Assembly (NCBI RefSeq): GCF_000253055.1
Contig: NC_016070.1
Span: 360,001-392,000 of the forward strand
Origin: Thermoproteus tenax Kra 1
GTDB lineage: Archaea; Thermoproteota; Thermoprotei; Thermoproteales; Thermoproteaceae
Length of the DNA: 32,000 nt
Direction: 5' to 3'
Shown: positions 1-32,000 of the stretch, piece after piece
Numbering within the stretch: the first letter of the stretch is position 1
Layout of the letters: each line of letters opens with the position of its first letter
Made by a program: the position numbers and the translations under genes
Notes under the pieces: model-generated
The model's input: only the letters and a program-made list of their open reading frames with translations
The model's database searches: none
What the model was told of the DNA's origin: nothing

Positions 1-1
1 C

Positions 2-11150: not shown

Positions 11151-11184
11151 TTTTTCGACTGATGTGGACGCACAGAAGCCGCCC

Positions 11185-12585: not shown

Positions 12586-12592
12586 AGAGGCC

Positions 12593-14535: not shown

Positions 14536-14638
14536 GCCCCTATCCTTATATGACGATAAAAATAATCCGAATTGTGTAAAAATAACACGTTAGCTCGTCT
14601 TCCGCTGCAGCCCAACGACTTATAAGGAAGAACCGACT

Positions 14639-15136: not shown

Positions 15137-15149
15137 AAAAGTCTAAATT

Positions 15150-15584: not shown

Positions 15585-15616
15585 GTATAAAAGAAAGGGG
15601 TAGGTATATATTAGCT

Positions 15617-15625
15617 TTATTACCA
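15617..15625 (-). promoter_or_regulatory. TGKTAATAA box (TGGTAATAA) upstream of the DsrE3-like gene
   Basis: The 5' T lies 41 nt before ATG 15584 and is followed by an AT-rich TATA-like tract. The box overlaps the stop codon of the upstream dsrE-like gene. Confidence 0.45.
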
Positions 15626-15970
15626 GCTTAATGTTATTTTTGAATCTGCGGCGTACTCATAAAAGCTTGCTATACCCATTATTTTGACCCCTTCGACTAC
15701 TTCATCCTCCTTTATATTAAACGTAGCCGCAGCCGAGGAACAGAGCCACATCTTGCCTCCCATCTCCATTATCTGTTTAAACCTGGACTGAATCTCTTTA
15801 TCGAGCTTCTCAAAGACTTTCTTCTTTACTACATGTGCGCCGTCCAACGTCCAGAAAATTAGCACATCAAAGCCCATGGAGAGAGCCGCCAGCGCATAGC
15901 CCAACATAGTTGAGATACGGGGGGTATCCGCGGGAGGCATTGTGGCCAAGAAGGCTATCTTATCGGCCAT
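15620..15970 (-). CDS. DsrE/DsrF-family sulfur-relay protein
   Basis: 116 aa with KIAFLATMPP..., conserved Cys in KMWLCSSAAATFNI, and tail ...ADSKITLSW. It is adjacent to the DsrE3-like gene. Confidence 0.6.
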   Translation of the reverse strand: MADKIAFLATMPPADTPRISTMLGYALAALSMGFDVLIFWTLDGAHVVKKKVFEKLDKEIQSRFKQIMEMGGKMWLCSSAAATFNIKEDEVVEGVKIMGIASFYEYAADSKITLSW

Positions 15971-16002
15971 GGGAGCACCATGAGTTCCGAGCTATAAAAA
16001 AA

Positions 16003-16011
16003 TTATTAACT
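16003..16011 (-). promoter_or_regulatory. TGKTAATAA box variant (AGTTAATAA) upstream of the DsrE-like gene
   Basis: 41 nt before ATG 15970, followed by TTTTTTTATAG. Confidence 0.4.
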
Positions 16012-16066
16012 TTAAATTTAACATAAATTTTGTTAAACCCCTCTCAAGGCCATATTAGCTTCTTAG

Positions 16067-16075
16067 TGGTAATAT
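16067..16075 (+). promoter_or_regulatory. TGKTAATAA box variant (TGGTAATAT) upstream of dsrN
   Basis: 40 nt before the in-frame GTG at 16107 and 25 nt before the TTG at 16092. Confidence 0.35.
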
Positions 16076-16091
16076 CCAATATTAAGCAGCC

Positions 16092-17453
16092 TTGGATTTA
16101 ACGCTCGTGATACCTCGCTTGGTGATATCGTCCTTTAAAGGCATGTCGGGGAAGACCATAATCTCGCTGGCGCTCATGTACGGCCTCTCCAGGAGGGGCC
16201 TCAGAGTGGCCCCCTTCAAGGTGGGGCCCGACTACATCGACCCCAGCTACCACGCGGCGGCGGCTGGGAGGCCCAGCAGAAACCTCGACGCGGTTCTGAT
16301 GGGGGAGAGGGGGGTGGTGGAGCGTTTTGTGAAGTTCTCGAGGGGCGCGGACATCGCCGTTGTGGAGGGGGTCCAGGGCCTCTACGACTCCTTCGACGGC
16401 GTCTCCGAGCTGGGCTCCACGGCGCAGGTGGCCAAGCTGTTGAGGGCCCCCGTGGTCCTCGTGTTGAACGGGGAGAGGGTGAACAGAACTCTCAGGGCCG
16501 TGGTGAGGGGGCTGAGGCAGTTCGACCCGGAGGTCAACATACCCGGCGTTATTTTGACAAACGTGGCAGGTAGCCAGGCGGAGAAGCTGAGGAGGGCCCT
16601 CCCCGAGGAGGGCGTGGAGGTGCTGGGGGCTGTGCCGAGGAGCGAGAGGCTGGCGGAGGTCTTCTCCTACAGACACTTGGGCCTCACGCCGGTGGGCGAG
16701 AGGGGCGACGTCCCCAACATAGTGGAGGCCCTCGAGAAATACGTCCTGCCCTACATCGATCTAGACGCCGTCGTGGCCCTGGCTAAATCGGCCGGAGACC
16801 TCCCCTACGGCCCTCCGCCCGAGGGGGACCCCGCGGGGTCGGGCACGTGCAGAATCGGTATCGTCCTCGACAGAGCCTTCACCTTCTACTACCCCGAGGT
16901 CTTCGAGGAGGCCAAGTCTCTGGGGGAGGTGGTGTTTTTAGACTCGCTGGAGATGCAGGAGCTGCCCCCGGTGGACGTGGTCTTCGTAGGCGGGGGCTTC
17001 CCCGAGACCTCCGCCGAGGAGCTGGAGAGGAACAGAGCCTTCAGATCCTCGCTTTTGAGGTACATCGAGCGGGGAGGCAGGCTGTACGCCGAGTGCGGCG
17101 GCCTCATGTACCTCACCTCCTCCATAGTGGTAGAGGGCTCGGAGTACGAGATGGTCGGCGCGATAGACGCCGTAACTGTGATGCTGAAGAGGCCGGTGGG
17201 GAGGGGGTACGCCTGGGGCGTAGTCGAGGGGAGGACCCCCGTCGCCCCTCCGGGGACCAGGCTGGTGGGGCACGAGTTCCACTACTCCAAGCTCGTCCTC
17301 AGGGAGAGGGTGGAGACCGCTATAAGGCTGGAGAGGGGGGTGGGGATCGGCGGCGGCAGAGACGGCGTTGTGAAGGGCAATATGCACGCGCAGTACCTCC
17401 ACCTGCACCCCTACACCTACAGCGCTTTGAGGGCGCTATGCCGCTCTACGTAG
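16092..17453 (+). CDS. dsrN: Cobyrinic acid a,c-diamide synthase homolog (CbiA/CobB family), likely DsrN siroheme amidase
   Basis: The P-loop region SFKGMSGKTIISLAL, PFKVGPDYIDPSYH, and glutamine amidotransferase motifs YAECGGLMYL and GHEFHYS are present. Context is a dsr locus. The track start is TTG 16092, but GTG 16107 is plausible (see the promoter-box finding). Confidence 0.75.
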   Translation: MDLTLVIPRLVISSFKGMSGKTIISLALMYGLSRRGLRVAPFKVGPDYIDPSYHAAAAGRPSRNLDAVLMGERGVVERFVKFSRGADIAVVEGVQGLYDSFDGVSELGSTAQVAKLLRAPVVLVLNGERVNRTLRAVVRGLRQFDPEVNIPGVILTNVAGSQAEKLRRALPEEGVEVLGAVPRSERLAEVFSYRHLGLTPVGERGDVPNIVEALEKYVLPYIDLDAVVALAKSAGDLPYGPPPEGDPAGSGTCRIGIVLDRAFTFYYPEVFEEAKSLGEVVFLDSLEMQELPPVDVVFVGGGFPETSAEELERNRAFRSSLLRYIERGGRLYAECGGLMYLTSSIVVEGSEYEMVGAIDAVTVMLKRPVGRGYAWGVVEGRTPVAPPGTRLVGHEFHYSKLVLRERVETAIRLERGVGIGGGRDGVVKGNMHAQYLHLHPYTYSALRALCRST

Positions 17454-18091
17454 TGGGGGCGGGCCCCGGCGACCCCAAGCTCTTGACCATCAGAGCTAGG
17501 GAGCTGCTCGAGCAAGCCGACGTGGTGGCATACGGCGACCTCGTGCCGGAGGAGGTGGCGAGGATCGCCAAGAGGGCGCGTGTTGTAAAAATTGGCCACA
17601 GGAGGGCGGAGCACGACGCAGCTATAGACGCCCTGATAGAGGAGGCGCGGAGGAGCAACGTGGTGATTCTTAAGAACGGCGACCCGGCCATATTCGGGAG
17701 GGGGATCAAGATATGTAAAAAGGCTAGGGAGAGGGGGGTTCCGTGCGAGGTTGTGCCGGGCGTCAGCTCTTTTACGGCCGCGGCCGCCCTATATCAGATA
17801 GAATTAACCGATGGAGAGGCGTTGCGCCACGTGGCTTTGTTGGCATATCCCAACTTTGGACCGGGCGTTTTGAAGGAGGTCAGAGCCGACACCATCGTAA
17901 TCTTTATGATGGGAGATAGGCTGCCTGAAGTAGCAGGCGTTTTAGCTGAAGAATGCGACCCGGAGAGGGTGTTCTTGTGTGCGGGTGTGACGATAGGCGG
18001 ATATTGCGAGGAGCTCAGCACCGAAGAATTGAGCGCACGAAAGGGCGTCAGACCGGCCCTAGTTATAGCTCAAAAATGTAGAAAGCATTAA
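17438..18091 (+). CDS. cobA: Uroporphyrinogen-III C-methyltransferase (SUMT; CobA / CysG-A type)
   Basis: MPLYVVGAGPGDPKLLTIRA... and VVILKNGDPAIFGRG...VPGVSS are tetrapyrrole methylase signatures. The ATG at 17438 overlaps the dsrN end by 16 nt. The longer track ORF (from 16847) is an out-of-frame run-through of dsrN. Confidence 0.8.
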   Translation: MPLYVVGAGPGDPKLLTIRARELLEQADVVAYGDLVPEEVARIAKRARVVKIGHRRAEHDAAIDALIEEARRSNVVILKNGDPAIFGRGIKICKKARERGVPCEVVPGVSSFTAAAALYQIELTDGEALRHVALLAYPNFGPGVLKEVRADTIVIFMMGDRLPEVAGVLAEECDPERVFLCAGVTIGGYCEELSTEELSARKGVRPALVIAQKCRKH

Positions 18092-18105
18092 TGATTGTTT
18101 TACAC

Positions 18106-18114
18106 TGTTAATAA
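18106..18114 (+). promoter_or_regulatory. TGTTAATAA box upstream of tusA (18144)
   Basis: Perfect box 38 nt before the ATG, followed by TATTTAAAAG at -27 to -18. Confidence 0.55.
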
Positions 18115-18143
18115 ACTATTTAAAAGTATATGACGATGGGGCT

Positions 18144-18380
18144 ATGGAGAAAGTCGCAAAGACTCTCGACGCGAGGGGGAAGTTCTGTCCCATTCCGGTT
18201 ATGGAGACTGCAAAGGCCATAAACGAGGTCAAAGTCGGCGAGGTATTAGAGGTTCTCGCCACCGACCCTGCGGCGGACCCCGACATAAAGGCTTGGGCTA
18301 AAAGGATGGGACACGAAGTGATCTTGTCTGAGAAGACGCCGGAGGGTTATCTAAGAATATTAATAAAAAGATTGAAGTAA
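18144..18380 (+). CDS. tusA: TusA/SirA-family sulfur carrier protein
   Basis: 78 aa with LDARGKFCPIPV (CPxP) followed by EVLATDP. A T5 run follows the stop. Confidence 0.85.
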   Translation: MEKVAKTLDARGKFCPIPVMETAKAINEVKVGEVLEVLATDPAADPDIKAWAKRMGHEVILSEKTPEGYLRILIKRLK

Positions 18381-18389
18381 AACTTTTTG

Positions 18390-18725
18390 CTATACGCAAC
18401 CTGTTGGTTTCGGCGCTCCTGCCACTTTACAAGCGCCGTGGGCAGGCCCCGAGGGGAACAGCTGATATATCTTCTCCAGGCTGAAGCCTGTCTCCTTCGT
18501 GAGCATCTTTATCGGTGGACAAGAGCCGTAGGTCTCCCAGTACTCCCTAAGGTACTTAATTACTTTCCAGTGCTCCTCTGTCATCTGCTGTACGCCTTCA
18601 AGCTCTCTCGCCATCCACTCTGCTATTTTTTCATCCCAGTCCTCCGTGTTCTGCATAAAGCAGTCCTCGTCTAATATAACCTTTTTTCCGTCTACGGTGT
18701 ATTCACCCGGACATTTCACCGGCAT
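18390..18725 (-). CDS. dsrC: DsrC (dissimilatory sulfite reductase gamma subunit / TusE family)
   Basis: 111 aa. The C-terminal arm ...HGACKVAGAPKPTGCV has both conserved cysteines, the penultimate Cys and a Cys 10 residues upstream. The core WDEKIAEWMA...HWKVIKYLREYW is typical of DsrC. Confidence 0.9.
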   Translation of the reverse strand: MPVKCPGEYTVDGKKVILDEDCFMQNTEDWDEKIAEWMARELEGVQQMTEEHWKVIKYLREYWETYGSCPPIKMLTKETGFSLEKIYQLFPSGPAHGACKVAGAPKPTGCV

Positions 18726-18754
18726 GGCCTTCGTGATGCTTTATTTAAAAAATA

Positions 18755-18763
18755 TTATTAACA
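18755..18763 (-). promoter_or_regulatory. TGTTAATAA box upstream of dsrC
   Basis: Perfect box 38 nt before ATG 18725, followed by a T/A-rich tract (TTTAAATA). Confidence 0.55.
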
Positions 18764-18764
18764 C

Positions 18765-19247
18765 TCATTGAGAAATTATATTGCCTTTAATATAGCGAAT
18801 AACCGAGGGAAGAAGCGGAGACAACAGCTCTTGAGGGGTACCTTTGTATAAAGCGTAGAATATCATGATGGGCAGCTCGTCTATTGGAGCTCCGCCTTTA
18901 GCGTATTCTAGATATACATCAAGAAATCTAGCTAAATGTTCTTTATCTATATTCAAATTCTTTCTCAATTTATTCAAAATTAACTCTTGACTGGCACAAT
19001 TATAATAATAACAGACTATCAAGCCCCGTACTGTTGAGGCCAAGAGGTCGCCTCTGTGGCCGTTGGATCTCTCAATGAGACCGTATTTCTCAAGCCTTCT
19101 GACCTTTCTATACACTTGGGAGAAATGATAGTTTAGGTCATTCGCTATCTTATAGGCTGTCGCAGGTCCTCGGGATACTATGTACGACATCACATCTCTC
19201 AGTATCTTATCCCTAGAAAAATCACATAATTCTAATAAATTCAACAT
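18765..19247 (-). CDS. Winged-helix DNA-binding protein (putative regulator), paralog of 28379-29077
   Basis: The HTH-like segment is GPATAYKIANDLNYHFSQVYRKVRRLEKYGLIE. I prefer the ATG at 19245-19247 over the TTG at 19265, because the TATA-like CTTATATAG then lies at -29 to -21. Confidence 0.5.
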   Translation of the reverse strand: MLNLLELCDFSRDKILRDVMSYIVSRGPATAYKIANDLNYHFSQVYRKVRRLEKYGLIERSNGHRGDLLASTVRGLIVCYYYNCASQELILNKLRKNLNIDKEHLARFLDVYLEYAKGGAPIDELPIMIFYALYKGTPQELLSPLLPSVIRYIKGNIISQ

Positions 19248-19303
19248 TGATAGATAAAAATCCAAATCTATATAAGCTCTATTCCATCCGTGCGCCGGGA
19301 ATA

Positions 19304-19567
19304 TTAAGTGGCAGCTCGTTGCGCGAGCGTCGCCGGCCTAGTCGCCATTTTGACCAACGCGCGTGAGCCCACTACGAAGACGTGTGTATAACCTCCGCGT
19401 TCAGACAATATCTTAAATCCACCGATGCTGTCGAGGACTTCGTCCAGAGGCCTACCGTAGTATTTTCGTGGGAACACCACTTTTCCCTCCTTGGCCTTAA
19501 TATACTCCTTTACATCGCATAGACACAGAGTCGACACCACGGTTTCATAGTCCTCTCTGATATACAT
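19304..19567 (-). CDS. Hypothetical protein (87 aa)
   Basis: ORF with an ATG start. It is preceded by a perfect TGTTAATAA box at -40 and a TATA-like tract. I recognised no motif. Confidence 0.4.
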   Translation of the reverse strand: MYIREDYETVVSTLCLCDVKEYIKAKEGKVVFPRKYYGRPLDEVLDSIGGFKILSERGGYTHVFVVGSRALVKMATRPATLAQRAAT

Positions 19568-19598
19568 GGTAACAGCGACGTTATCTTTGTATTAAATT

Positions 19599-19607
19599 TT
19601 ATTAACA
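19599..19607 (-). promoter_or_regulatory. TGTTAATAA box upstream of the 87-aa ORF
   Basis: Perfect box 40 nt before ATG 19567. Confidence 0.5.
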
Positions 19608-19612
19608 AGGCG

Positions 19613-20065
19613 GTGCTAACTTATATTTTTATTCCCATCGATATCTTCTTTGTGATCTCAATTATAGAGGAGATAAAGAGGAGAGTGCAGGCCTACGGCA
19701 TGCCGTGTGGCGCGCCGCCCAATGGGCTGAAGCTCGAGGAGAACTTATACGTCTCTGACGGCTGGGCGATCTACTCTTCACAAGATGGTACTAAATGTCT
19801 CTACATGGGCGAGGTCGCCCAAGCCGTTGCATATGTTGGCAAAGTTGACTGCGTGAAAAAGATCGAGGGGGTCAAGCTCTCTCCTCCTTTTCTAGAGCTC
19901 TATGAAGACGAGGAGTACGCGGTCATATTGGGCGTGTGCGGCACCGATGTGTGCATCCAAGAGTGGAGAGATGAGGCTCCCAATTGTACTTGTATCTCAA
20001 ATTTAAAATTAGATGAATATATTAAAATGGTAAAAATATTAGAGAATTATAATTTGATTGATTAA
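19613..20065 (+). CDS. Hypothetical Cys-rich protein
   Basis: 150-aa ORF with 7 Cys. The start is uncertain (GTG 19613, GTG 19685 or ATG 19700). The 3' end is unusually AT-rich and overlaps the convergent DUF1641 gene by 4 nt. Confidence 0.4.
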   Translation: MLTYIFIPIDIFFVISIIEEIKRRVQAYGMPCGAPPNGLKLEENLYVSDGWAIYSSQDGTKCLYMGEVAQAVAYVGKVDCVKKIEGVKLSPPFLELYEDEEYAVILGVCGTDVCIQEWRDEAPNCTCISNLKLDEYIKMVKILENYNLID

Positions 20066-20502
20066 GTGATATGGGGACAAGATCCTATCTTCTTCAGGAC
20101 TGACATCAGATATCCCAGCCCTCTTTGGATCTCGGGATCTCCAAGGGCGTTGAGCAGACCCCAGAGCCCGATAGGCTTGGAGCCGTCAGCTGTAGCGATC
20201 GCGTTAGTGATACAGTCCACTTTAGAGCTGTCCGCCGATAGGTTCGTGCCTGCTATAAGCGCCACCTCCTGCAGTTTTGAGATTCTCTCCATGAAGTCCT
20301 TCGTGAGCAAACCCTCTGTGATAAACCGGAGCGCCGCTACCGCCTGAAGCAGATCGTCTAGGATGCCGCTGCGTTTGAACTCGAAGAGAGCGTCCACAAG
20401 ATCCTTCACTACATCGATCTTCTCCACTATCTCGAGAAGCGCTTGTTGCGTCTTCTCCTGTTGTAGCAACTCTATCAATTTATCGAGCTTTTCGGAGCTC
20501 AT
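20062..20502 (-). CDS. DUF1641-family protein (accessory protein commonly paired with SQR/NADH-dehydrogenase-like flavoproteins)
   Basis: The C-terminus GLWGLLNALGDPEIQRGLGYLMSVLKKIG fits the DUF1641 pattern. I moved the start to ATG 20500-20502, which forms an ATGA overlap with the sqr stop. Confidence 0.6.
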   Translation of the reverse strand: MSSEKLDKLIELLQQEKTQQALLEIVEKIDVVKDLVDALFEFKRSGILDDLLQAVAALRFITEGLLTKDFMERISKLQEVALIAGTNLSADSSKVDCITNAIATADGSKPIGLWGLLNALGDPEIQRGLGYLMSVLKKIGSCPHIT

Positions 20503-21641
20503 AGCCCGCACCTCATCACAGACCATATAGAGTAGTTGGTCATGTCCTTCAATCTTACAAAGAACCTACTTGGCGGCGGCGGGAACTTTGCAGGGTTCTC
20601 GTAGTTCCATGAGACCATAGTGGCCTCCTCGAAACCTGTCAGAATGAAGCAGATGACCCTTCCGTCGTATCTGGCGTCTGAATGGCCCAACTTCAGCTCG
20701 TCCGCTATTCTGTTTGATACGATCTCGCTCTGGAAGTGTGCAACCGATCCAGCCTTAGGTACAGGCAGATTAGTGGCGTCGCCGAGCGCATACTCAGCGC
20801 CTGTCGCTCCCTGTGCCTGAATCTGGAGCGTGTGTCTGTCGACAGGAACCCACCCCGCCTGATCCCCAATGCCCGATTTGATTACTACGTCGCTGCCGCC
20901 GTGGGGAGGCACTGCCATAATTAGATCGGCCTTTATCTCGCTCGACCCTACGACTTTCCCCTCCTCTATCGAGTTCACTTGGAATTTTGTGTGATATTCG
21001 AAGCCCCACATCGACAAAGTCTCCTCAAGGAATTTGTTCACCTGAGGTTGCGCGTGCAAATGGGGAGCCACTGTGGTGAATATAACCTTGGTCTTAGCTC
21101 TGAGTCCCGTGGCCATAAGGTAGTCGTTTAAAAGCCCGAGAAACTCGTAGGGAGCCACTGGACATTTATATGGTGTAGAGGTGACAGCCACCGCCACAGT
21201 TCCGCCTTTGAATTCTCTCAACATTTCCCTCACCCTCTTGGCGCCCTCGTACGTCCATACGGTCGACCACCATTTGCCGTAGCCGGAGAACGAGCCGACC
21301 TTTACTGTAGCCCCTGTAGCCACCACTAGATAATCATATTTATGTTCTTTTCCTGACTGTGTTATTATTTTCTTATTATTTAAATCTATTTTTGAGACAG
21401 TATCTTTTTCTAATTTTATCAGTGGATTTAGAAGTTTTGATACAGATCTGAACATCACGTCGGGCACCAACTCTTGAAACGGTACATACAAGAACCCGGG
21501 CTGATAGGTCTGGATCTCGTTTTGTTCAATTAATAAGATGGATACGTCGCCTCTCTTGATTTCGCCGTGTAGCTTAGCGGCGAGCTTATTGGCAGTAAAT
21601 ATTCCGCCAACACCGCCTCCAACTATTACAATGGTTTTCAT
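20499..21641 (-). CDS. sqr: Sulfide:quinone oxidoreductase-like FAD-dependent disulfide oxidoreductase
   Basis: The N-terminal FAD fold is KTIVIVGGGVGGIFTANKLA. TSTPYKCPVAPYEF (conserved Cys), a second Cys in GRVICFILTG, and ALGDATNLPVPKAGS are present. Length is 380 aa. Confidence 0.75.
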   Translation of the reverse strand: MKTIVIVGGGVGGIFTANKLAAKLHGEIKRGDVSILLIEQNEIQTYQPGFLYVPFQELVPDVMFRSVSKLLNPLIKLEKDTVSKIDLNNKKIITQSGKEHKYDYLVVATGATVKVGSFSGYGKWWSTVWTYEGAKRVREMLREFKGGTVAVAVTSTPYKCPVAPYEFLGLLNDYLMATGLRAKTKVIFTTVAPHLHAQPQVNKFLEETLSMWGFEYHTKFQVNSIEEGKVVGSSEIKADLIMAVPPHGGSDVVIKSGIGDQAGWVPVDRHTLQIQAQGATGAEYALGDATNLPVPKAGSVAHFQSEIVSNRIADELKLGHSDARYDGRVICFILTGFEEATMVSWNYENPAKFPPPPSRFFVRLKDMTNYSIWSVMRCGL

Positions 21642-21672
21642 AGGACCTTGGCTATTAAGAATTAAAAATAAA

Positions 21673-21681
21673 TTATTAACA
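21673..21681 (-). promoter_or_regulatory. TGTTAATAA box upstream of sqr
   Basis: Perfect box 40 nt before ATG 21641. Confidence 0.55.
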
Positions 21682-21816
21682 CTATTAATGAGAATATTAT
21701 TTTAAATTTCAGAATTATTAAATATTTTAAAAAAGACTTTAAATATATTATAAATATGATTTAACATTGATATATTGTAGTATTTATCTAGTAAATATTT
21801 ATAAAGTATAAAATAA

Positions 21817-22753: not shown

Positions 22754-23900
22754 CTCTGAACCTAGGCCATATATCGCCTCTGCTCCTGAAGTGCATATAG
22801 GTGCGCACGTGGTCGGGCACTTTCTGATAGAACGCGTGTACCTTATCCACGCCGACCAAGGATATGAACCTCTGCCACCCTATTCTGTTTATGAAATCTC
22901 CAAGCCTCTCGCCTGGTTGCGCGTGCTCCCTCCACACGTCTATCACCTTTTTGACGACCGCTACGATCTCCTCATAACGCGGCGGATTGGCGGGTAGCCA
23001 CGGTATCAATACGCGGCCCAATCTGGGGCCGCCGCCTGTGTTCGACATCTTTCCTCCCACGACGATCGAAACGCCTACGTCTTGCGGATCGTAGTCGAAG
23101 GCATCGCAGTTCTCCTTACATCTAGCGCAGTTTATGCACTTATCCCCAATAAGTACAAGCTTCACTTTGTCTCCCTCTCTCCTTAGGCTCAACGCGCCTG
23201 TCGGACACACTTGTACTATGAAGACTTGCGACTCTGGTATCTTGGCCAGAGCCTTAGGCGGCGGCAGACAATACGACAACATCTCCTCTCTGATCTTGGG
23301 CGGAGCGCCCCACTGGCCAACTATGACGATATCCATCGCTGTACCTCCCGCGCACATGGCCGGACACCCTGAGACAAACACCCTCAGCTTCGCCGGCAAC
23401 GGCACCTCGCCTGTGAAATAGGGCTTCAGGGCATCGCCAAGAGCCTTACTTATCGATGGCGAGTCCACCACTGCAGTAGTACATGTCAGATACGCCGTAC
23501 ATGAATTTATGCCCCAGAGCGACCGACCCCAGCCGCCGACGGGGAAACCCATCTTCTCGGCCTCCTCCTTGATCTTGAGCGCTTTGTCGAGGGAGTCTGT
23601 CAATATCTCCAAGTTGCCGGCCATAGTGACCCTCATGGCGCCCACTCCAAGTTTGTCCGCAATATCGGCAAACTGATCCAAAGTGTCAGCGCTAAGCCTT
23701 GCGTTGGGCGGCATCGCTATCTTGACCGTGAAGACGTGCTCGCCGGTCGCAGAGATGTGCTCAATGATGCCGTTCTCGTGGAACTTTCTATCGATCCACT
23801 TGCCGTAGTTGCGCTTGATTATATCCGGCAGATATTTATCGAGGTCTATGGGGAATACTTTCTGTAGTCTCGCTGCCCTGGGGTTAGTAGGCGACGTCAT
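22743..23900 (-). CDS. dsrB: Dissimilatory sulfite reductase beta subunit, copy 1
   Basis: The siroheme/[4Fe-4S] motifs CTAYLTC (C-x5-C) and SGCPAMC (C-x3-C) are present, with a ferredoxin insert CPTGA...CINCARCKENC. ATGA coupling to dsrA-1. Confidence 0.9.
   Translation of the reverse strand: MTSPTNPRAARLQKVFPIDLDKYLPDIIKRNYGKWIDRKFHENGIIEHISATGEHVFTVKIAMPPNARLSADTLDQFADIADKLGVGAMRVTMAGNLEILTDSLDKALKIKEEAEKMGFPVGGWGRSLWGINSCTAYLTCTTAVVDSPSISKALGDALKPYFTGEVPLPAKLRVFVSGCPAMCAGGTAMDIVIVGQWGAPPKIREEMLSYCLPPPKALAKIPESQVFIVQVCPTGALSLRREGDKVKLVLIGDKCINCARCKENCDAFDYDPQDVGVSIVVGGKMSNTGGGPRLGRVLIPWLPANPPRYEEIVAVVKKVIDVWREHAQPGERLGDFINRIGWQRFISLVGVDKVHAFYQKVPDHVRTYMHFRSRGDIWPRFRDGI
23527..23600. repeat. 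74-nt inverted repeat with one mismatch, arm A (dsrB-1)
   Basis: Reverse complement of 26809-26882 except for one base (T versus C at 26862). It encodes TDSLDKALKIKEEAEKMGFPVGGWG. Confidence 0.9.
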
Positions 23901-25114
23901 GTCTTAATAGCCTCCACTAACTTCAGGTACGACTCTCTTTCCTCCTTGCTCAACACGGCGTAAGGCACCTCGTCGCCCATCTTGGCTAGCGGCGGCATAC
24001 CCTCAAGCTCGATCCCAGCCTTCTTTACAAAGTTCTCAATGCCTACTTGCATTATATAATCGCCTAGGCGATACTTGGGTTGCGCCTCCTTGTCCCACGG
24101 CTCTATCAGTTTGAACGCCAGATCTATCGCCTTTTGGTGATCCTCAGGATCCAGATAGCCTACGAACCATCCCAACTTGGGACCAAATCTGCCCTTGACT
24201 CCGCCGCCTATGACTACTGCCACCTTTCTCTTCCTCCCCGGCTTTATCGCCGGGAACGCCCTCCTTATACACTCCATCGACTTCTTGCACTTGGCTCCGT
24301 CTATCTTCAGCTCCTTCCCGTCCCAAGTTATGGCGCCGGAGGGGCACCTCGCCGCAAGCTCCTTGGGGTCGACCTCGCCGGCCTCTATCTTCCTCCTCAG
24401 AAGCTCTTGGTCCACCTCGGGGGCGCCCTCCCATACGCCGATGAGACCTAGGTCTGCCCTATTGGCCCTAGCACAGTCCATGGGGCACCCTGAGAACTTA
24501 ATCTTGAACTTATAGGGGAAGTTCGGCGTCGCTATGGCGTCGTTGACTCTCTTGTCCTTATGAAATTCGGCGTACCACTTCAACGTGTCATACAAGGCGA
24601 ACTCGCAGAGGGCTGGGCCCACGCACGCGTTAAGGGCCCTAATGGCGTCTCCGCTACCGCCTACATCAGTGCCGATGGATCTCAACGCGTCGACCATTTC
24701 CTCTGCCTTGTCCTTTGTTAGATTCAAGACGAAGGCCCCTGTCTGGCCAACAATCTCAATGAGCCCGACGCCCAACTCCCGAGATATCTTGGTAATCTGT
24801 CTAACGAAGTCGGTCTTCCAGAACTTGCCGGGCGTGTGGAATATTCTGAAGTGCGTCTCCTCGCCTCCGTTGGGCACCCACGGCCTAGACCATCTGGATA
24901 GCACGCCGGTGTTCACAAATTCGACCTTGACGGCGCCCGGCCCCCAGGGAGTTTTCCGGGCAACGAGGCCGACGCCGTAAATATGTAGAGGATACCTAGT
25001 TTTCCTCAGCTCTCTAACGTGGCTGGGCCAAGGGCCTTTTTCTAACTCTTCCAATATCTCATTAGCCCTCTTTAACAGTTCATCGGGCGGCGGTAGATTT
25101 GGAGGAGCCGCCAT
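23897..25114 (-). CDS. dsrA: Dissimilatory sulfite reductase alpha subunit, copy 1
   Basis: GPWPSHV, CVGPALC (C-x5-C), SGCPMDC (C-x3-C) and the ferredoxin-like insert CPSGA...CKKSMEC are present. I chose the ATG at 25112-25114 (MAAPPN...). The TTG at 25153 would extend into the AT-rich promoter. Confidence 0.9.
   Translation of the reverse strand: MAAPPNLPPPDELLKRANEILEELEKGPWPSHVRELRKTRYPLHIYGVGLVARKTPWGPGAVKVEFVNTGVLSRWSRPWVPNGGEETHFRIFHTPGKFWKTDFVRQITKISRELGVGLIEIVGQTGAFVLNLTKDKAEEMVDALRSIGTDVGGSGDAIRALNACVGPALCEFALYDTLKWYAEFHKDKRVNDAIATPNFPYKFKIKFSGCPMDCARANRADLGLIGVWEGAPEVDQELLRRKIEAGEVDPKELAARCPSGAITWDGKELKIDGAKCKKSMECIRRAFPAIKPGRKRKVAVVIGGGVKGRFGPKLGWFVGYLDPEDHQKAIDLAFKLIEPWDKEAQPKYRLGDYIMQVGIENFVKKAGIELEGMPPLAKMGDEVPYAVLSKEERESYLKLVEAIKT
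24240..24441. repeat. 202-nt perfect inverted repeat, arm A (inside dsrA-1)
   Basis: I checked base by base that this is the exact reverse complement of 25953-26154. It encodes (I/V)GVWEGAPEVDQELLRRKIEAGEVDPKELAARCPSGAITWDGKELKIDGAKCKKSMECIRRAFPAIKPG. Confidence 0.95.
24585..24625. repeat. 41-nt perfect inverted repeat, arm A (dsrA-1, C-x5-C siroheme motif region)
   Basis: Reverse complement of 25766-25806. It encodes CVGPALCEFALYDT. Confidence 0.9.
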
Positions 25115-25143
25115 AGGACTGCCTCTCCGAAAAATTTTAAGAG

Positions 25144-25152
25144 TTATTAACA
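25144..25152 (-). promoter_or_regulatory. TGTTAATAA box upstream of dsrA-1
   Basis: Perfect box 38 nt before ATG 25114, followed by CTTAAAATTT at about -27 to -18. The extended site GTTAATAAC is a perfect palindrome. Confidence 0.55.
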
Positions 25153-25245
25153 AGTTAAAAGAAATATATTAAAATTGAAAAATCTATAGAATTTAATATT
25201 TTTCTATATATATACATTATTTTACATATTTTAATACACAAATAG

Positions 25246-25254
25246 TGGCAATAA
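25246..25254 (+). promoter_or_regulatory. TGKTAATAA box variant (TGGCAATAA) upstream of dsrA-2
   Basis: 40 nt before ATG 25286, followed by CTATTTTTATAA. Confidence 0.4.
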
Positions 25255-25285
25255 TCTATTTTTATAATCATCGGTACACTTTTTT

Positions 25286-26521
25286 ATGGAGGCATCGCAA
25301 AAGAGGGCAGAAGTGGACGAGCTTGCGCGAAGCGCATCAAAGGTGTTAGAGCGTCTAGAGAACGGGCCTTGGCCGAGCCACGTCAAAGAGCTCAAGAAAT
25401 CCAAGTATCCCCTAGAGGCTTACGCCGCCGGTCTAGCTGCCCGTAAGACGCAGTGGGCGGCCGGCTCGGCGAAGATAAGATACGTCTACACTGGCTTTAT
25501 CGCCAGAAGGACGAGGGATGGAAAATATGCCGAACTGCACTTCCGCGTCTGGCAACCTTCGGGGCAAATATATACTACTGATTATCTCAGGAGACTCTTA
25601 GATTTCGCGGACACTTACGGCTTAGGTCTAATAGAGATTCTAGGCCAACAGGGTATGATGATAATATCTGTGGATCCCAGCAGAGCCGACGAGGCCATAG
25701 ACGCCCTTAGGGCCTTGGGCACAGACGTCGGAGCTACCGGCGATACCATCAGAGAGCTGGCCACATGCGTGGGCCCAGCCCTCTGCGAGTTCGCCTTGTA
25801 TGACACATTGGCTGCCAGAGACTACTTCTTGACGCACCCTAAGATCTATGAATGGATGAGCAACCAGCTGTTTCCCTTTAAGTTCAAGGCGAAGTTCTCC
25901 GGCTGTCCCATGGACTGCACAAGAGCGGTCCACAGGTCCGATTTCGGCTTCGTCGGCGTATGGGAGGGCGCCCCCGAGGTGGACCAAGAGCTTCTGAGGA
26001 GGAAGATAGAGGCCGGCGAGGTCGACCCCAAGGAGCTTGCGGCGAGGTGCCCCTCCGGCGCCATAACTTGGGACGGGAAGGAGCTGAAGATAGACGGAGC
26101 CAAGTGCAAGAAGTCGATGGAGTGTATAAGGAGGGCGTTCCCGGCGATAAAGCCTGGTAAGAACCGCAAGATAGCAGTGCTCGTGGGAGGCCACGTGAAG
26201 GGGAGATTCGGCGGCAAGATGGGGAAGCCGCTCGCCATAGTTAACAGTGTTGAGGAGGCCATGGGTTGGGTCGTGAAGACCGTCGAATCTTGGATGGATG
26301 GCCTCGAGACCGGCGTAAGCAAACACAAGGACAGAATCGGCGACTTCATTATGAAGGTGAACTTCAAGAAATACACCGAGGAGATCCTCGGAGTAAAAGT
26401 GCCCTACAAGCCCTCTCTACACGGGAGGCTGGGCGCCGGCGCTGTGTTAGACGACAACGAGAGAAAGATGTGGCTGGAGTGGGTTCAGAACATCGTGAAG
26501 GAATACGAGGAGAGGATATGA
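25286..26521 (+). CDS. dsrA: Dissimilatory sulfite reductase alpha subunit, copy 2
   Basis: It carries the same motif set as copy 1 (GPWPSHV, CVGPALC, SGCPMDC, CPSGA...CKKSMEC). By eye it is only roughly half identical to copy 1 outside the identical tracts. Confidence 0.9.
   Translation: MEASQKRAEVDELARSASKVLERLENGPWPSHVKELKKSKYPLEAYAAGLAARKTQWAAGSAKIRYVYTGFIARRTRDGKYAELHFRVWQPSGQIYTTDYLRRLLDFADTYGLGLIEILGQQGMMIISVDPSRADEAIDALRALGTDVGATGDTIRELATCVGPALCEFALYDTLAARDYFLTHPKIYEWMSNQLFPFKFKAKFSGCPMDCTRAVHRSDFGFVGVWEGAPEVDQELLRRKIEAGEVDPKELAARCPSGAITWDGKELKIDGAKCKKSMECIRRAFPAIKPGKNRKIAVLVGGHVKGRFGGKMGKPLAIVNSVEEAMGWVVKTVESWMDGLETGVSKHKDRIGDFIMKVNFKKYTEEILGVKVPYKPSLHGRLGAGAVLDDNERKMWLEWVQNIVKEYEERI
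25766..25806. repeat. 41-nt perfect inverted repeat, arm B (dsrA-2)
   Basis: Reverse complement of 24585-24625. Confidence 0.9.
25953..26154. repeat. 202-nt perfect inverted repeat, arm B (inside dsrA-2)
   Basis: Exact reverse complement of 24240-24441. The spacer between the arms is 1511 nt and contains both dsrA 5' halves and both promoters. Confidence 0.95.
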
Positions 26522-27633
26522 GCGCCAACCCCGCTGATAGACTGAGGAAGAACTTGCCGGTGCCCTACACCAAGTTTCTGCCGGAGCAGTTAAAGCGTAA
26601 CCTTGGCAAATGGATAGACCGCAAGTTCCACGGCTACGGGATAATTGAACACATCTCCGAGACCGGAGACAGAATATTTACCGTGAAGATAGGTACGCCG
26701 CCCAACTTCCGCCTCAGCACCTCCACCCTAAGGGAGTTAGCTAAAGTGGCGGACGAGCTTGGCATAGGCGCCCTGAGGTTTACCAGGAACGGAAATATTG
26801 AGTTTATCACAGACTCCCTCGACAAAGCGCTCAAGATCAAGGAGGAGGCCGAGAAGATGGGCTTCCCCGTCGGCGGCTGGGGGCCTACGCTCTGGTCCGT
26901 GAACTCGTGCACGGCCTTCCTCACTTGCACAACGGCGGTTGTGGACTCGCCATCAATAACTAAGGTTCTGTACGATGCGCTTAAACCGTACTTCACAGGA
27001 GAGATAACATTGCCGGCGAAGCTAAGGATAAACGTGTCGGGCTGCCCCAGCGCGTGCGGCGGATTTACTGCAGATATAAACCTCGTCGGCCATTACGGCG
27101 ATGCTCCAACTTACGACCCAGAGCGTATAAAGCTCTGTCTGCCCAAGAGCGCCAAGGCGCTGGAGACCGGGCACGTGCCGGAGGTGGCTGAGGTTTGTCC
27201 CACAGGCGCCATTAAAGTCTACGGGAAGCCGGACGGCACTGTAGGCCTAGACGTGATCCGCTCTAAGTGTATAGCGTGTGGCAGGTGTAGAGATGTGTGC
27301 GACTGGATGGACTTCGACGAGAGCAAAGCAGGCGTCGCTGTACTAATCGGCGGAAAGGCCAGCAACACGGGGACGGGCCCATGGCCCTCGGTACAAGTGA
27401 TACCTTGGGTTCCCGCAGTGCCGCCGGACTACAAAGAGATAGTCGCCGTTGTCAAAAAGATAGTCGATGTGTGGAGGAGCCACGCCAGGACAGGGGAGCG
27501 CATTGGAGATTGGCTGAACAGAGTCGGCTTCGAGGAATTCTACAAACTATTGAACATACCGCTCACTAGGTGGAACCAGCCGCCTAGATTCTCTGGGGAG
27601 TTCGGGATAAGGCAGTTCTTCCAGAGGGCGTGA
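26518..27633 (+). CDS. dsrB: Dissimilatory sulfite reductase beta subunit, copy 2
   Basis: The ATG at 26518 forms an ATGA overlap with the dsrA-2 stop. Motifs are CTAFLTC, SGCPSAC and CPTGA...CIACGRCRDVC. The longer track ORF (from 26266) is an out-of-frame run-through of dsrA-2. Confidence 0.9.
   Translation: MSANPADRLRKNLPVPYTKFLPEQLKRNLGKWIDRKFHGYGIIEHISETGDRIFTVKIGTPPNFRLSTSTLRELAKVADELGIGALRFTRNGNIEFITDSLDKALKIKEEAEKMGFPVGGWGPTLWSVNSCTAFLTCTTAVVDSPSITKVLYDALKPYFTGEITLPAKLRINVSGCPSACGGFTADINLVGHYGDAPTYDPERIKLCLPKSAKALETGHVPEVAEVCPTGAIKVYGKPDGTVGLDVIRSKCIACGRCRDVCDWMDFDESKAGVAVLIGGKASNTGTGPWPSVQVIPWVPAVPPDYKEIVAVVKKIVDVWRSHARTGERIGDWLNRVGFEEFYKLLNIPLTRWNQPPRFSGEFGIRQFFQRA
26809..26882. 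repeat. 74-nt inverted repeat with one mismatch, arm B (dsrB-2)
   Basis: See 23527-23600. Confidence 0.9.
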
Positions 27634-28127
27634 GCGTATACGACAAAATAGGTGAGCTCATCCTAGCTTTACGGTTTAGATATCATGTTGAAGAATTCGG
27701 GGATGCCTCTGAGCTGGCCAACTACATCAAAGAATTGGAGTCAGGCGAAGGCGTCGACGCGCTGCTCTCGTTGGAGGGACGTCCGCGGCCGTATCTAATA
27801 TCGGCGTATAGAGAGGGAGACGACGTTGTGCTGGCACTCGTAGACCTAGACGATGTGAGATCCCTCAAGACGGGAGTCAAAGTGGAGGAACTAGAGGAGG
27901 TGACGAGTGCTCTCGGCGCTGAAAAATACGGGTCTAATGGACTGGCCCCCTTCTTTTTCCCCATAATGGAGAGAGATGGCGAGGCGTTTTTTGCCCTAGG
28001 CCTCAAGGCCGTGTTGCCGCTCACAGTGGTCACTGGCGGCGCCATAGATGAACTGTTGGAGATCTTAGAAGTGCGAGGCGATGAATTTTTCAACGCTATA
28101 GTCGGCGCTTTGAAGTCCTTATATTGA
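27630..28127 (+). CDS. Hypothetical acidic protein, third gene of the dsrAB-2 operon
   Basis: 165-aa ORF. Its GTG start forms a GTGA overlap with the dsrB-2 stop. It shows no similarity by eye to the ORFs downstream of dsrAB-1. Confidence 0.5.
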   Translation: MSVYDKIGELILALRFRYHVEEFGDASELANYIKELESGEGVDALLSLEGRPRPYLISAYREGDDVVLALVDLDDVRSLKTGVKVEELEEVTSALGAEKYGSNGLAPFFFPIMERDGEAFFALGLKAVLPLTVVTGGAIDELLEILEVRGDEFFNAIVGALKSLY

Positions 28128-28150
28128 CGATGCTTGAGATGCTATCGTCG

Positions 28151-28186
<36 letters not shown>

Positions 28187-28372
28187 GATTTGAGCATATA
28201 ACCTTCATGGCAGAGCAGGTGAAGACAACCGAGAAAGGCTTAAACATCGGTGCATTCAACGCGGCGGCGCGGGCCAACGGCGGATGGCCCTGGCAGGGGG
28301 ACGCCACAATGCCCGTCCCAGCCGCGGCCCATTAACCCCGGGCAACGGGCGAGGCCCCCACGGTAGAGGCCC

Positions 28373-28387
28373 CGCCCTTTAGGGCGG
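28373..28387. repeat. Hairpin-forming 15-mer CGCCCTTTAGGGCGG, copy 2
   Basis: Identical 15-mer that overlaps the TAA stop (28379-28381) of the convergent wHTH gene. Confidence 0.7.
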
Positions 28388-29077
28388 CGCGGTCATAAAC
28401 TCTTCCAACTTTTTTCTAAAGTCTTCCAACTCTTTTTGTAAACGACATACTCCGAGACACGGCGCCTTGCAGACGACTATTGAATTACCTATAATGTAAT
28501 GATCGCCCGTATCCCACGCCAATCCTATTCTGTAGAGCCCCTCGGCGAAGAGGGGCAATGCGGCTGTAAATATCCGTTCGGGGATCTCTAGGATCTCGGA
28601 CAATCGTAATATTGACGATCTGCCCGAGACTAACAACAACATAGACGATGTCGTACAGAGTTTTTCTATGGGCGCTAGATACAAAGACATGCCTAACTTT
28701 CTCAAGGCGGCCAGAACCACTTGTGCCAGCGCTCCCACTTGCCAGAGCGGCGCCGATGTGTCCCATCGCGTCTTAAGTTGGACTAAGGGATATTGTGGCG
28801 GCGCGCATCCTTTACAGAGACAGTAGAGGGCGCCCCTCGCTGTAAGCCTTACCTTCCCCTCATATTTTTCTAAAAGGCCGCGCCTCAGCGCCTTCTGGAA
28901 TTTGGCGTAGGCCGTAGAAAAGGGCATGTTCAACCTCCTTGCCGCCTTGTATACTGTGCCGCCCGTGTTCTCGGCAAAAAAGGAGAGCAGGTCATCCACA
29001 GCCAGATCCTCGTTGCAGGTCCACCTCAGCTCCCCGAGATCTACCTTTGCCGGCTTGATGAGAATAATATTTCCCAT
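28379..29077 (-). CDS. Winged-helix DNA-binding protein (putative regulator), paralog of 18765-19247
   Basis: GGTVYKAARRLNMPFSTAYAKFQKALRRGLLEKYEGKVRLTARGALYCLCKGC aligns with PATAYKIANDLNYHFSQVYRKVRRLEKYGLIE...STVRGLIVCYYYNC of the paralog. It is transcribed divergently from dsrM. Confidence 0.5.
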   Translation of the reverse strand: MGNIILIKPAKVDLGELRWTCNEDLAVDDLLSFFAENTGGTVYKAARRLNMPFSTAYAKFQKALRRGLLEKYEGKVRLTARGALYCLCKGCAPPQYPLVQLKTRWDTSAPLWQVGALAQVVLAALRKLGMSLYLAPIEKLCTTSSMLLLVSGRSSILRLSEILEIPERIFTAALPLFAEGLYRIGLAWDTGDHYIIGNSIVVCKAPCLGVCRLQKELEDFRKKLEEFMTAPP

Positions 29078-29126
29078 GGTCTCAATAAATCGTTCTTAAT
29101 ATTTATATTGTGACTTTGCATCTTAT

Positions 29127-29135
29127 TGTTAATAT
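29127..29135 (+). promoter_or_regulatory. TGKTAATAA box variant (TGTTAATAT) upstream of dsrM
   Basis: 38 nt before ATG 29165, followed by GTTTATTTAA. Confidence 0.45.
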
Positions 29136-29164
29136 AGTTTATTTAACCCGCGCCAGTGGATCGC

Positions 29165-29929
29165 ATGGATTGGACAGACGTTATGCTCTATGGCGTCTTC
29201 CCCTATCTGTCTCTTTTATTGTTTTTCGGCGGGGTGATATACCGTTTTGCCAATTGGATCTCTGCACAGGGGCTAACAGGCCTTTACTCTGTCGCCGTGA
29301 AGAGCTACACTTGGAGCTTCGGAGCTAGAGCCTCCGAAGTTGTAAAGAGGGTGTTTGTGCTCTATACGCTGACTTTATCGGATAGAATGTTGTTAGTGGG
29401 CTCTCTCCTCTTCCACTGGGGGATATGGTTGGCTCTGCTCGGCCATCTCTCGATGATCATACCCCCTGAGACCCTCGGAATGCCTAGCTCGCTTCATGAG
29501 GCTATAGCGCTCTACGTCGGCGGAGGCGCTGGAGTTGTAGCTCTTATCGGCTTATTGATATTGTTAATCAGAAGAATAGTAAGACAAGATGTAAGACGGT
29601 TGAGCTTCCTTGACGACTGGTTCGCCTTAGTCCTATTATTAGGCATAGTCGTGTTGGGCCTCTATCAGACGTTGATACTACACCCCGATTATATGCACAC
29701 AGTCGCGCCGTGGGTTCAAAGCGTGTTGGTGGGCTCCCCCGATCTCTCAATAGTGGCTACATGGAGTTTAGTAACAAAAATCCATGTGCTCCTGGCACTC
29801 ATATTTATAGCCTATGTGCCCTTCGGAAAATTGATCCATCCGTTTTCTTTCTTAGCGATGCCCACGCTCTGGAAGCCGCCTACAAAACTTTATGGATATT
29901 TATTGGCTAAGCTTCGACCTTCCCAGTAA
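29165..29929 (+). CDS. dsrM: DsrM (NarI/HdrE-like membrane di-heme cytochrome b)
   Basis: It has about 5 TM segments with His-containing helices (LFHWGIWLALLGH, KIHVLLALIF) and lies immediately upstream of dsrK. I prefer ATG 29165 to the GTG at 29156, because it gives the same 38-nt spacing to the promoter box seen at other genes. Confidence 0.8.
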   Translation: MDWTDVMLYGVFPYLSLLLFFGGVIYRFANWISAQGLTGLYSVAVKSYTWSFGARASEVVKRVFVLYTLTLSDRMLLVGSLLFHWGIWLALLGHLSMIIPPETLGMPSSLHEAIALYVGGGAGVVALIGLLILLIRRIVRQDVRRLSFLDDWFALVLLLGIVVLGLYQTLILHPDYMHTVAPWVQSVLVGSPDLSIVATWSLVTKIHVLLALIFIAYVPFGKLIHPFSFLAMPTLWKPPTKLYGYLLAKLRPSQ

Positions 29930-29930
29930 T

Positions 29931-29939
29931 TGTTAATAA
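29931..29939 (+). promoter_or_regulatory. TGTTAATAA box upstream of dsrK
   Basis: Perfect box 40 nt before ATG 29971, starting 2 nt after the dsrM stop codon (29927-29929). This suggests an internal promoter or operator between dsrM and dsrK. Confidence 0.5.
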
Positions 29940-29970
29940 AGATTATTTTTTTACATCACGTACATCTACA

Positions 29971-31784: not shown

Positions 31785-32000
31785 GAGATTGTGTCACAAT
31801 AAAAATTCTAGCTCTGTCTCCAGAGCGAGATCATAAAACTATAACTGGAAGGCCAGCGCACCTCTCTAAAAACGACAGAGGGCCGGCCGAGCCAAAGCCC
31901 GGCGGGACTTGTATTGGAATATATGTACAAATGCGGACCTCGCCTAGCCTTCTTAGCCTTTCGCCATGCCTCAAGAGACCTCTCCCTCTATACGCCAGAT

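Follow-up and report, generated by a model that had tools for sequence, protein, structure and literature searches.

Archaeal promoters possess a TATA, which is an 8-bp, A/T-rich tract found approximately 26 nt upstream of the transcription start. Directly abutting TATA is the transcription factor B (TFB) recognition element (BRE), approximately 7 bp in length and found in degenerate form at most promoters. Short elements by which a metabolic regulon is defined can adjoin or overlap BRE or TATA as well, acting there on recruitment of TFB and of the TATA-binding protein (TBP), e.g., the TGM motif (TrmBL1/Tgr), the TFB-RF1 site beside the BRE, and the 6-bp boxes of EarA. Among bacteria, the persulfide- and sulfide-sensing repressors CstR, SqrR, and BigR are small winged-helix proteins with paired cysteines, and their operators are dyads which overlap sigma-70 promoters. 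Proteins of the SurR family, in turn, consist of two ArsR-type winged helix-turn-helix (wHTH) domains with an N-terminal CxxC. SurR as found in Thermococcales is a winged-helix protein with a cysteine redox switch, its sites lying near BRE/TATA and the position of those sites deciding between activation and repression (PMC12162507). The subject of this article is a 9-nt box, TGKTAATAA, which stands before sulfur genes, including dsr genes, in a 32,000-nt stretch of DNA from Thermoproteus tenax Kra 1 (NC_016070.1, positions 360,001 to 392,000 of the forward strand). By 'the window' I mean that whole stretch, and positions are counted from its first letter.

Dissimilatory sulfite/sulfate reduction is among the oldest of respiratory pathways, with the enzymes of Thermoproteales branching near its root. 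A literature search covering the motif, promoter motifs of Pyrobaculum, and regulators of archaeal dsr genes returned no description of the box or of any such regulator. As judged from sequence, the box probably is the site, not described before, through which archaeal sulfite/sulfate respiration genes are controlled. More specifically, it seems rather likely to be a gene-set-specific, cis-regulatory element of an archaeal dissimilatory sulfite/sulfate reduction regulon, one that would be read by a wHTH factor which the locus itself encodes.

Eleven boxes upstream of sulfur genes

Six exact copies of TGTTAATAA are found in the window (18106+, 18755-, 19599-, 21673-, 25144-, and 29931+). The expectation is 0.17 given dinucleotide shuffles of the whole window, or instead 0.08 when only the 1348 nt of AT-rich spacers are shuffled, none of the 2000 shuffles of these giving more than 2. 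The original prediction, that these copies are more than AT-richness would supply, thus is borne out. So too are its six exact along with five variant boxes, giving 11 box promoters altogether, each box being found in a short, AT-rich spacer, in the orientation of the downstream gene, and 38-41 nt before the start. These boxes, with protein lengths in amino acids (aa), are as follows, with a degenerate copy from the promoter of a winged-helix gene (wHTH1) given last:

15617..15625, minus strand: box TGGTAATAA of the DsrE2-type gene (144 aa, 15150-15584), TATA tract 15606-15613
16003..16011, minus strand: box AGTTAATAA of the DsrE gene (116 aa, 15620-15970), TATA tract 15992-15999
16067..16075, plus strand: box TGGTAATAT of dsrN (GTG 16107, then the SUMT tetrapyrrole methylase gene), TATA tract 16079-16086
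18106..18114, plus strand: box TGTTAATAA of tusA (18144-18380), TATA tract 18118-18125
18755..18763, minus strand: box TGTTAATAA of dsrC (18390-18725), TATA tract 18744-18751
19599..19607, minus strand: box TGTTAATAA of orf87 (19304-19567), TATA tract 19588-19595
21673..21681, minus strand: box TGTTAATAA of the sqr-like/DUF1641 operon (start 21641), TATA tract 21662-21669
25144..25152, minus strand: box TGTTAATAA of the dsrA1B1-orf161-DUF1122 operon (ATG 25114), TATA tract 25133-25140
25246..25254, plus strand: box TGGCAATAA of the dsrA2B2-orf165 operon (ATG 25286), TATA tract 25258-25265
29127..29135, plus strand: box TGTTAATAT of dsrM (ATG 29165), TATA tract 29139-29146
29931..29939, plus strand: box TGTTAATAA of dsrK (ATG 29971), TATA tract 29943-29950
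19279..19287, minus strand: degenerate box ATGGAATAG-agc-TTATATAG of the wHTH1 promoter

The labels of the two DsrE genes appear to have been swapped in the prediction, as TGGTAATAA precedes the 144-aa DsrE2-type gene and AGTTAATAA the 116-aa DsrE gene. Upon alignment of the 11 sites, G at position 2 along with A, A, T, and A at positions 5-8 are invariant. A scoring matrix built from these same 11 sites, which it then recovers, gives 11 matches of at least 11 bits over the 32 kb, all of them these promoters, with none in coding sequence nor in window positions 1-15000. The palindromic core to which the prediction had pointed, GTTAATAAC, is indeed present at dsrA1, but it is found only there, and the element as a whole is asymmetric.

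Two other candidate identities were rejected. A repeated promoter cassette or mobile element is ruled out, as the flanks of the boxes are unconserved, and a terminator or 3'-end signal is ruled out as well, since box orientation tracks the downstream gene.

Packing about the boxes is very tight. The dsrK and dsrC boxes begin 2 nt past the stop codons of dsrM and wHTH1, respectively, and TGGTAATAA at 15617-15625 also encodes the last sense codon (Trp) and the double stop (TAA TAA) of the upstream DsrE gene. The boxes of dsrC and orf87 have, 23-30 nt upstream of them, additional box-like strings, AGGCAATAT at 18774-18782 (-) and TGGGAATAA at 19625-19633 (-). Both strings precede an A/T tract, and they could be secondary sites or chance matches.

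Position of the box relative to TATA

In all 11 cases the box is followed by 3 variable nt and then by a T/A tract. From the 5' end of the box to the start codon is 38 nt four times, 40 nt five times, and 41 nt twice. The gap to TATA, by contrast, is 3 nt throughout, and the box therefore is phased to TATA rather than to ATG. The fixed phase of the original prediction holds in the first of these senses, but not in the second.

That the downstream tract is an ordinary TATA follows from its position. TATA was called as the best TTTAAA-like hexamer, using the same procedure for the box promoters (n=11) and for unrelated promoters (n=40), the latter from the window left half, from P. aerophilum IM2, from two related contigs, and from another Thermoproteales contig. 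The median start of that hexamer is -26 from the start codon in both groups. This fits with the leaderless transcripts that have been described for P. aerophilum (PMC2151090).

Relative to TATA, the box spans about -12 to -4, and unrelated promoters are moderately A-rich over -10 to -4, which is where a BRE is expected. The AATAA half of the box thus overlaps the BRE zone, and the 5' half, which is TGKT in the window and either GTGn or AGn elsewhere, reaches beyond it. Within the 40 nt upstream of the 11 window boxes there is no second half-site, dyad, or further conserved block. As a canonical BRE the box does not qualify: its conserved bases fall at -12 to -4, the 3 nt abutting TATA are variable, and it is absent from 56/57 background promoters.

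Might the box be instead a TATA? The original prediction had allowed for this, and the idea can be phrased in terms of tandem promoters, with TTAATAA serving as a second, upstream TATA, A-n-TG as its BRE, and a short leader of 6-10 nt resulting. The boxes of the window do lend themselves to such a description, being A/T-rich save for one or two G, being preceded by an A at -2 in 8/11 sites, and including a TATA-like TTAATAA. In Vulcanisaeta-, P. oguniense-, and Thermoplasmata-like lineages, however, what is homologous is a 5-bp AATAA that is flanked by G/C (GTGGAATAAccc, GAGGAATAAatc) and followed, after N3, by a normal TATA, and because of those flanks the box cannot be a TBP site. As the downstream tract, in addition, is found exactly at the TATA position of generic leaderless promoters, tandem promoters are quite improbable.

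Specificity against unrelated promoters

For comparisons among promoters a 'relaxed' box was employed, i.e., AATAA (or one mismatch) with G two or three bases upstream, then N3, then a tract of at least 6/8 A/T, with the whole properly spaced ahead of the start codon. Such a box is found at 19/31 dsr-locus promoters versus 1/57 unrelated ones (Fisher p = 2.6e-10), where the latter were taken from the window left half, from three P. aerophilum-type loci, from another Thermoproteales locus, and from non-sulfur flanks of dsr loci. With the window left out, it being the source of the pattern, the counts are 8/20 versus 1/51 (p = 9e-5). The box, that is, belongs to a set of genes and is not the generic promoter consensus, the latter being the possibility by which the original prediction would have had itself judged. 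Furthermore, the matrix matches 3 times in approximately 40 kb of unrelated, non-redundant Pyrobaculum/Thermoproteales DNA, each time inside a gene and never with TATA following.

Promoters of non-dsr genes and of the two winged-helix genes had been described as box-free. This stands for window positions 1-15000 and for the second winged-helix gene, wHTH2, but wHTH1 carries the degenerate copy given above.

It is against these results that chance can be weighed, or more broadly the idea that the box is a by-product of AT-rich spacers or strong promoters, possibly the promoter style of a horizontally acquired, low-GC (guanine plus cytosine) island, and as such lacking in regulatory role. The dsr island does have a GC that is below that of the window left half, intergenic spacers (35-175 nt) are 70-86% A+T, and the relaxed pattern matches 26 sites in the window, several of them away from promoters. 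Against this are the six exact copies where shuffled spacers supply 0.08, and the absence of the box from background promoters in four Pyrobaculum/Thermoproteales loci. Within the low-GC island, too, promoters of wHTH2 and of the DsrE gene at 31784 are without a box while that of wHTH1 has its weak copy only, so an 'island promoter style' does not explain the pattern.

Conservation in other lineages

Related loci (numbered here L001 and so on) were fetched around DsrA relatives from genomes, around exact DsrC homologues, and around DsrC relatives from metagenomes. Orthologous promoters in these loci keep the box at the same place, i.e., those of dsrA, dsrC, dsrM, sqr, orf87, sat, and aprB, which supports the prediction's view of the box as a gene-set-specific operator or special promoter element. 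That position is kept, moreover, across lineages ranging in GC from 0.39 to 0.62, also contrary to what chance or AT-richness would supply, an explanation that is very improbable and which can be viewed as largely refuted.

Box-bearing lineages consist of other Pyrobaculum/Thermoproteus, of Vulcanisaeta (CACGTGnAATAA), and of low-GC, Thermoplasmata-like archaea. Window-type boxes are seen in two metagenome-assembled genomes, with TGTTAATAT at dsrA, AGTTAATAA at aprB, and TGGTAATAA at orf87 in a Pyrobaculum (L001), and with TGTTAATAT at dsrA, TGGTAATAA at dsrM, and AGTTAATAA at aprB in the other (L004). Pyrobaculum oguniense TE7 (L003; CP003316.1 831401-852621) possesses three exact TGTTAATAA-N3-TATA promoters, these belonging to a DsrE2-type gene, a 117-aa open reading frame (ORF), and a dsrK-like fragment. 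It possesses as well TGATAATAA before sat, and GAGTAATAA- and AAGTAACAA-type boxes at its dsrC and dsrA promoters. More generally, the form of the box is [G/A]AG[T/G]AATAA (AGnAATAA) in P. oguniense-like contigs, (CA)CGTG-n-AATAA in Vulcanisaeta-like loci, and GTG-n-AATAA or GTCGAATAA in low-GC, Thermoplasmata-like contigs, the last keeping N3 to TATA despite leaders of approximately 25 nt.

Counting unique promoter sequences, the relaxed box is found at 21/24 of sqr, 18/21 of orf87, 13/15 of dsrA1-type, 17/28 of dsrA2-type, 40/79 of dsrC, and 20/41 of dsrM promoters. Genes internal to operons are nearly without it, i.e., 0/25 for dsrB1, 1/37 for dsrB2, and 0/12 for orf161. Across loci the start of AATAA has a sharp peak between -34 and -37, and the spacing between the element and the TATA hexamer peaks at 3-4 nt. 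No such element was found in high-GC archaeal dsr loci (L007, L009, L155-L172) nor in bacterial dsr loci. Among the former, the box-less dsrC loci L155-L162 share a different conserved string, GTTGTATCCTCA, approximately 60 nt upstream of dsrC, and this may be a control element of another lineage.

Boxed genes in related loci also include aprB(A), sat, a YeiH-like PF03601 transporter, and NarI-like membrane proteins (~300 aa), and the set therefore extends to the whole of the dissimilatory sulfate/sulfite pathway. One use of the box is that it flags orf87, orf161, orf165, the NarI-like membrane proteins, and the YeiH-like transporter as members of a sulfur-respiration regulon.

A Cys-rich winged-helix family as candidate regulator

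The two winged-helix genes of the window had been suggested as sources of the regulator, and the family to which they belong is indeed syntenic with box-positive dsr loci. They are:

18765..19247, minus strand: wHTH1, candidate regulator, 160 aa, TrmB/MarR-like winged helix (Pfam matches) with a Cx4C motif
28379..29077, minus strand: wHTH2, paralogous candidate regulator, 232 aa, Cx4C motif and C-terminal Cys cluster, no Pfam match

Family members possess an N-terminal winged helix and, after the wing, Cx4C (CYYYNC, CLCKGC, CLAHGC), with homologues in L002, L004, L006, L081, L082, and L086, and the long members have in addition a C-terminal CxxCx3-4C cluster. The family is tiny, as just 7 of 1.84 billion representative clusters match wHTH2 at E <= 1e-3. 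Searches of wHTH1 and wHTH2 against PDB sequences and with family profiles gave only weak, generic wHTH matches, and no SurR structure. Single-sequence AlphaFold models are of low quality (predicted local distance difference test scores of 41 for wHTH2 and 48 for wHTH1).

Among the fetched dsr loci, 59 encode relatives of wHTH1/wHTH2. The gene order orf87-wHTH1-dsrC(-wHTH2) recurs in the L081-like group, a family gene adjoins dsrK in Vulcanisaeta-like loci, and Thermoplasmata-like contigs encode the family as well. Box-positive loci nearly always encode the Cys-rich winged-helix family. For loci of at least 15 kb, the co-occurrence of box and gene (two-by-two table with rows 20, 4 and 3, 27) has a p of 4e-8, a value that ignores phylogeny and which counts bacteria with the negatives.

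Of unique wHTH1 promoters, 21/39 are themselves boxed (TTGAAATAA in the L081-like group), and this suggests autoregulation. In addition, GTGnAATAA is common to lineages with the long, Vulcanisaeta-type protein, and 5' halves of the box have diverged where proteins have diverged, as seen over four or five lineages. These lineage-specific 5' halves are compatible with a co-evolution of factor and site.

What reads the box, and to what effect

I infer, in turn, a reader other than TFB, that this reader is of the wHTH family, and a sign of regulation. The regulon would consist of dsrAB, dsrC, dsrMK, dsrN, tusA, dsrE, sqr, and orf87, with sat and aprBA joining these in relatives. A dedicated transcription factor would bind the box in a fixed orientation, beside TBP/TFB, and in so doing would control their recruitment. 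The best candidate for that factor is the Cys-rich winged-helix family (wHTH1, wHTH2), the cysteines of which could sense a sulfur or redox signal. With repression, the factor would compete with TFB at the BRE position, and this competition would be relieved once cysteines were modified by the sulfur/redox signal. SurR of Thermococcales operates in this manner (PMC12162507). With activation, the factor, sitting immediately upstream of TATA, would instead substitute for BRE contacts. As the site overlaps the BRE position, I lean slightly towards a repression that is relieved by a sulfur signal, with activation about equally possible.

Various observations sit poorly with regulation by such a factor. 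The element is asymmetric and locked in its orientation, traits that are unusual in the site of a dimeric wHTH regulator but normal in a basal element such as the BRE. Its 5' half can be loose even within a single lineage, as is the case for the L081-like one (GTGG, TTGA, TGTT, CGTT). In the window, the wHTH2 promoter lacks a box and the wHTH1 promoter has solely its degenerate one, though boxes there are stronger in related lineages. In L001, L010, and L146 a box is present but the DNA fetched contains no wHTH gene, and the co-occurrence statistic has the shortcomings given above. Inside of dsr-centred loci, an automated, TATA-anchored comparison of sulfur with other ORFs was not significant (40/189 versus 31/204). 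That comparison was set aside, as boxed 'other' genes include sat, aprB(A), YeiH-like, and NarI-like genes (the rest of them not identified) and as the 'sulfur' class contains many false internal starts. Lastly, in Vulcanisaeta-like loci (L002, L006, L014, L015, L138, L145, L146) a box-like element, A[T/A]GCAATAA-tat-TTTTAAGG, precedes a 105-aa ORF which is found ahead of V-ATPase subunit AC39, and in the same loci GGTGAATAA-N3-TTATTAAGG precedes a 117-aa, winged-helix-like ORF. Because of these elements, the regulon of Vulcanisaeta-like loci may be broader than sulfur, or instead the AATAA half may add to promoter strength.

The asymmetry of the box leads to another possibility, which is that it is a specialised, extended BRE as read by one of two TFB paralogues, with selection of the dsr regulon then due to an alternative basal factor. 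Asymmetry, gene orientation, and a fixed 3 nt to TATA are BRE properties all, and the AATAA half falls in the stretch, -10 to -4, over which generic promoters are A-rich. The helix-turn-helix of TFB, judging by TFB/TBP/DNA structures, would reach about 7 bp, whereas the invariant G and T/G positions of the box are 10-12 bp upstream of TATA. Pyrobaculum genomes do encode two TFBs, TFB1 and TFB2 (PMC3388794). No tfb gene, however, is present in any of the fetched loci, and what the box tracks across phyla is dsr genes, co-occurring with a locus-encoded wHTH gene rather than with a tfb gene. The 5' half differs, furthermore, between lineages whose basal machinery is conserved. Reading by an alternative TFB is, on the whole, unlikely.

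A role for TFB need not be exclusive of one for the winged-helix family. It is conceivable, though I would hold it only tentatively, that the Cys-rich wHTH along with the GTGnAATAA/TGKTAATAA box, 3 nt before TATA, represents an ancient module of regulator and operator, one that accompanies the dsr gene set in more than one archaeal phylum (Thermoproteales; Thermoplasmata-like lineages). The box then would be read jointly, the 5' half by the sulfur/redox factor and the AATAA half by TFB, as a composite, orientation-fixed, monomer-type 'BRE extension'. Such a module, if true, would be the first case in which transcriptional control of dissimilatory sulfite/sulfate reduction has been described for archaea.

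What the box supplies is a precise cis-element, a defined set of target genes, and a candidate family of regulators with conserved cysteines. Control of archaeal dsr genes is in this way made testable in cultured strains, with P. oguniense TE7, fully sequenced, carrying exact copies of TGTTAATAA.

Other features of the locus

The window is a compact archaeal locus, and its peroxiredoxin is 91% identical to the counterpart in Pyrobaculum aerophilum. Pfam confirms for the right half two DsrE-family genes (DsrE; DsrE2-type), DsrN/CobB-like, TusA, DsrC, SQR-like plus DUF1641, DsrM, and DsrK. The right half also contains two divergent dsrAB pairs and the two winged-helix genes. Spacing of boxes supports ATG 29165 for dsrM and GTG 16107 for dsrN, as had been proposed, with N-termini of orthologues in agreement, and the box is in this sense an aid to start-codon annotation.

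The protein of orf87 (19304-19567) is small and belongs to no Pfam family, but contains Cys-Leu-Cys-Asp-Val as a conserved motif. Synteny of its gene with wHTH1 and dsrC extends to many Pyrobaculum/Thermoproteus contigs. The protein may carry sulfur, or it may partner the regulator.

GC is 0.54-0.62 over window positions 1-15000 and 0.42-0.56 over the dsr island (15000-32000), the exception within the island being dsrN and the adjacent SUMT gene, at 0.61. The dsr region of P. oguniense likewise is low in GC (0.47), and a foreign or distinct origin is suggested for the dsr island. The dsrA1 and dsrA2 proteins are approximately 50% identical, yet their genes share, within 24171-24467 (-) and 25927-26223 (+), a perfectly identical, 202-nt tract, encoding VWEGAPEVDQ...AIKPG. 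That identity, given the divergence of the proteins otherwise, indicates a recent gene conversion between the two. Rfam and tRNA scans of the window yielded no RNA genes. Positions 10262-11184, found between genes for an ATPase-like protein and a MerA-like flavoprotein, are 923 nt of GC 0.60 without a convincing ORF, Rfam family, or tRNA.

Comparison with known systems

The SurR operator of Thermococcales, GTTn3AAC (extended, GTTn3AACn5GTT), is the closest known analogue of the box system. Both involve a sulfur regulon in hyperthermophilic archaea, a wHTH protein with a Cys motif (for wHTH1/wHTH2 the switch is a candidate one), and sites near BRE/TATA. The sequences are similar too, with GTTAATAA matching GTTn3AA and the dsrA1 copy, GTTAATAAC, matching fully the short SurR motif. 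The box nevertheless is not a SurR dyad, as its position 9 is C in just 2/11 sites and the AAT that falls in the 'n3' positions is invariant, and it is both orientation- and phase-locked to TATA. The wHTH family, in addition, has no sequence relation to any SurR structure by PDB profile search. Targets also are different, i.e., mbh, mbs, and nsr for SurR, in Thermococcales, versus dsr, apr, and sat for the box.

With the archaeal BRE, the box shares a location immediately upstream of TATA, asymmetry, an orientation as set by the gene, and A-richness, its AATAA falling within the A-rich zone. Unlike the BRE, it is found only at dsr-related promoters (1/57 of the background) and consists of 9 conserved bp, with an invariant G that is 11 bp upstream of TATA, an unconserved gap of 3 nt, and a 5' half that is lineage specific.

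The sites of TGM, TFB-RF1, and EarA are like the box in kind, but differ in sequence, in targets, and in putative regulator family, most of the known ones being dyads or found further upstream. CstR, SqrR, and BigR overlap in the kinds of genes controlled (sqr and TusA/DsrE-type carriers), to which the box regulon adds dsrAB, dsrMK, sat, and apr. These are bacterial systems, and the likeness is one of analogy rather than of demonstrated homology. Set beside all of these, the box is a regulon motif of the promoter-proximal kind, unusual in that its geometry is BRE-like, and most likely the operator of a small and new family of Cys-rich winged-helix proteins.

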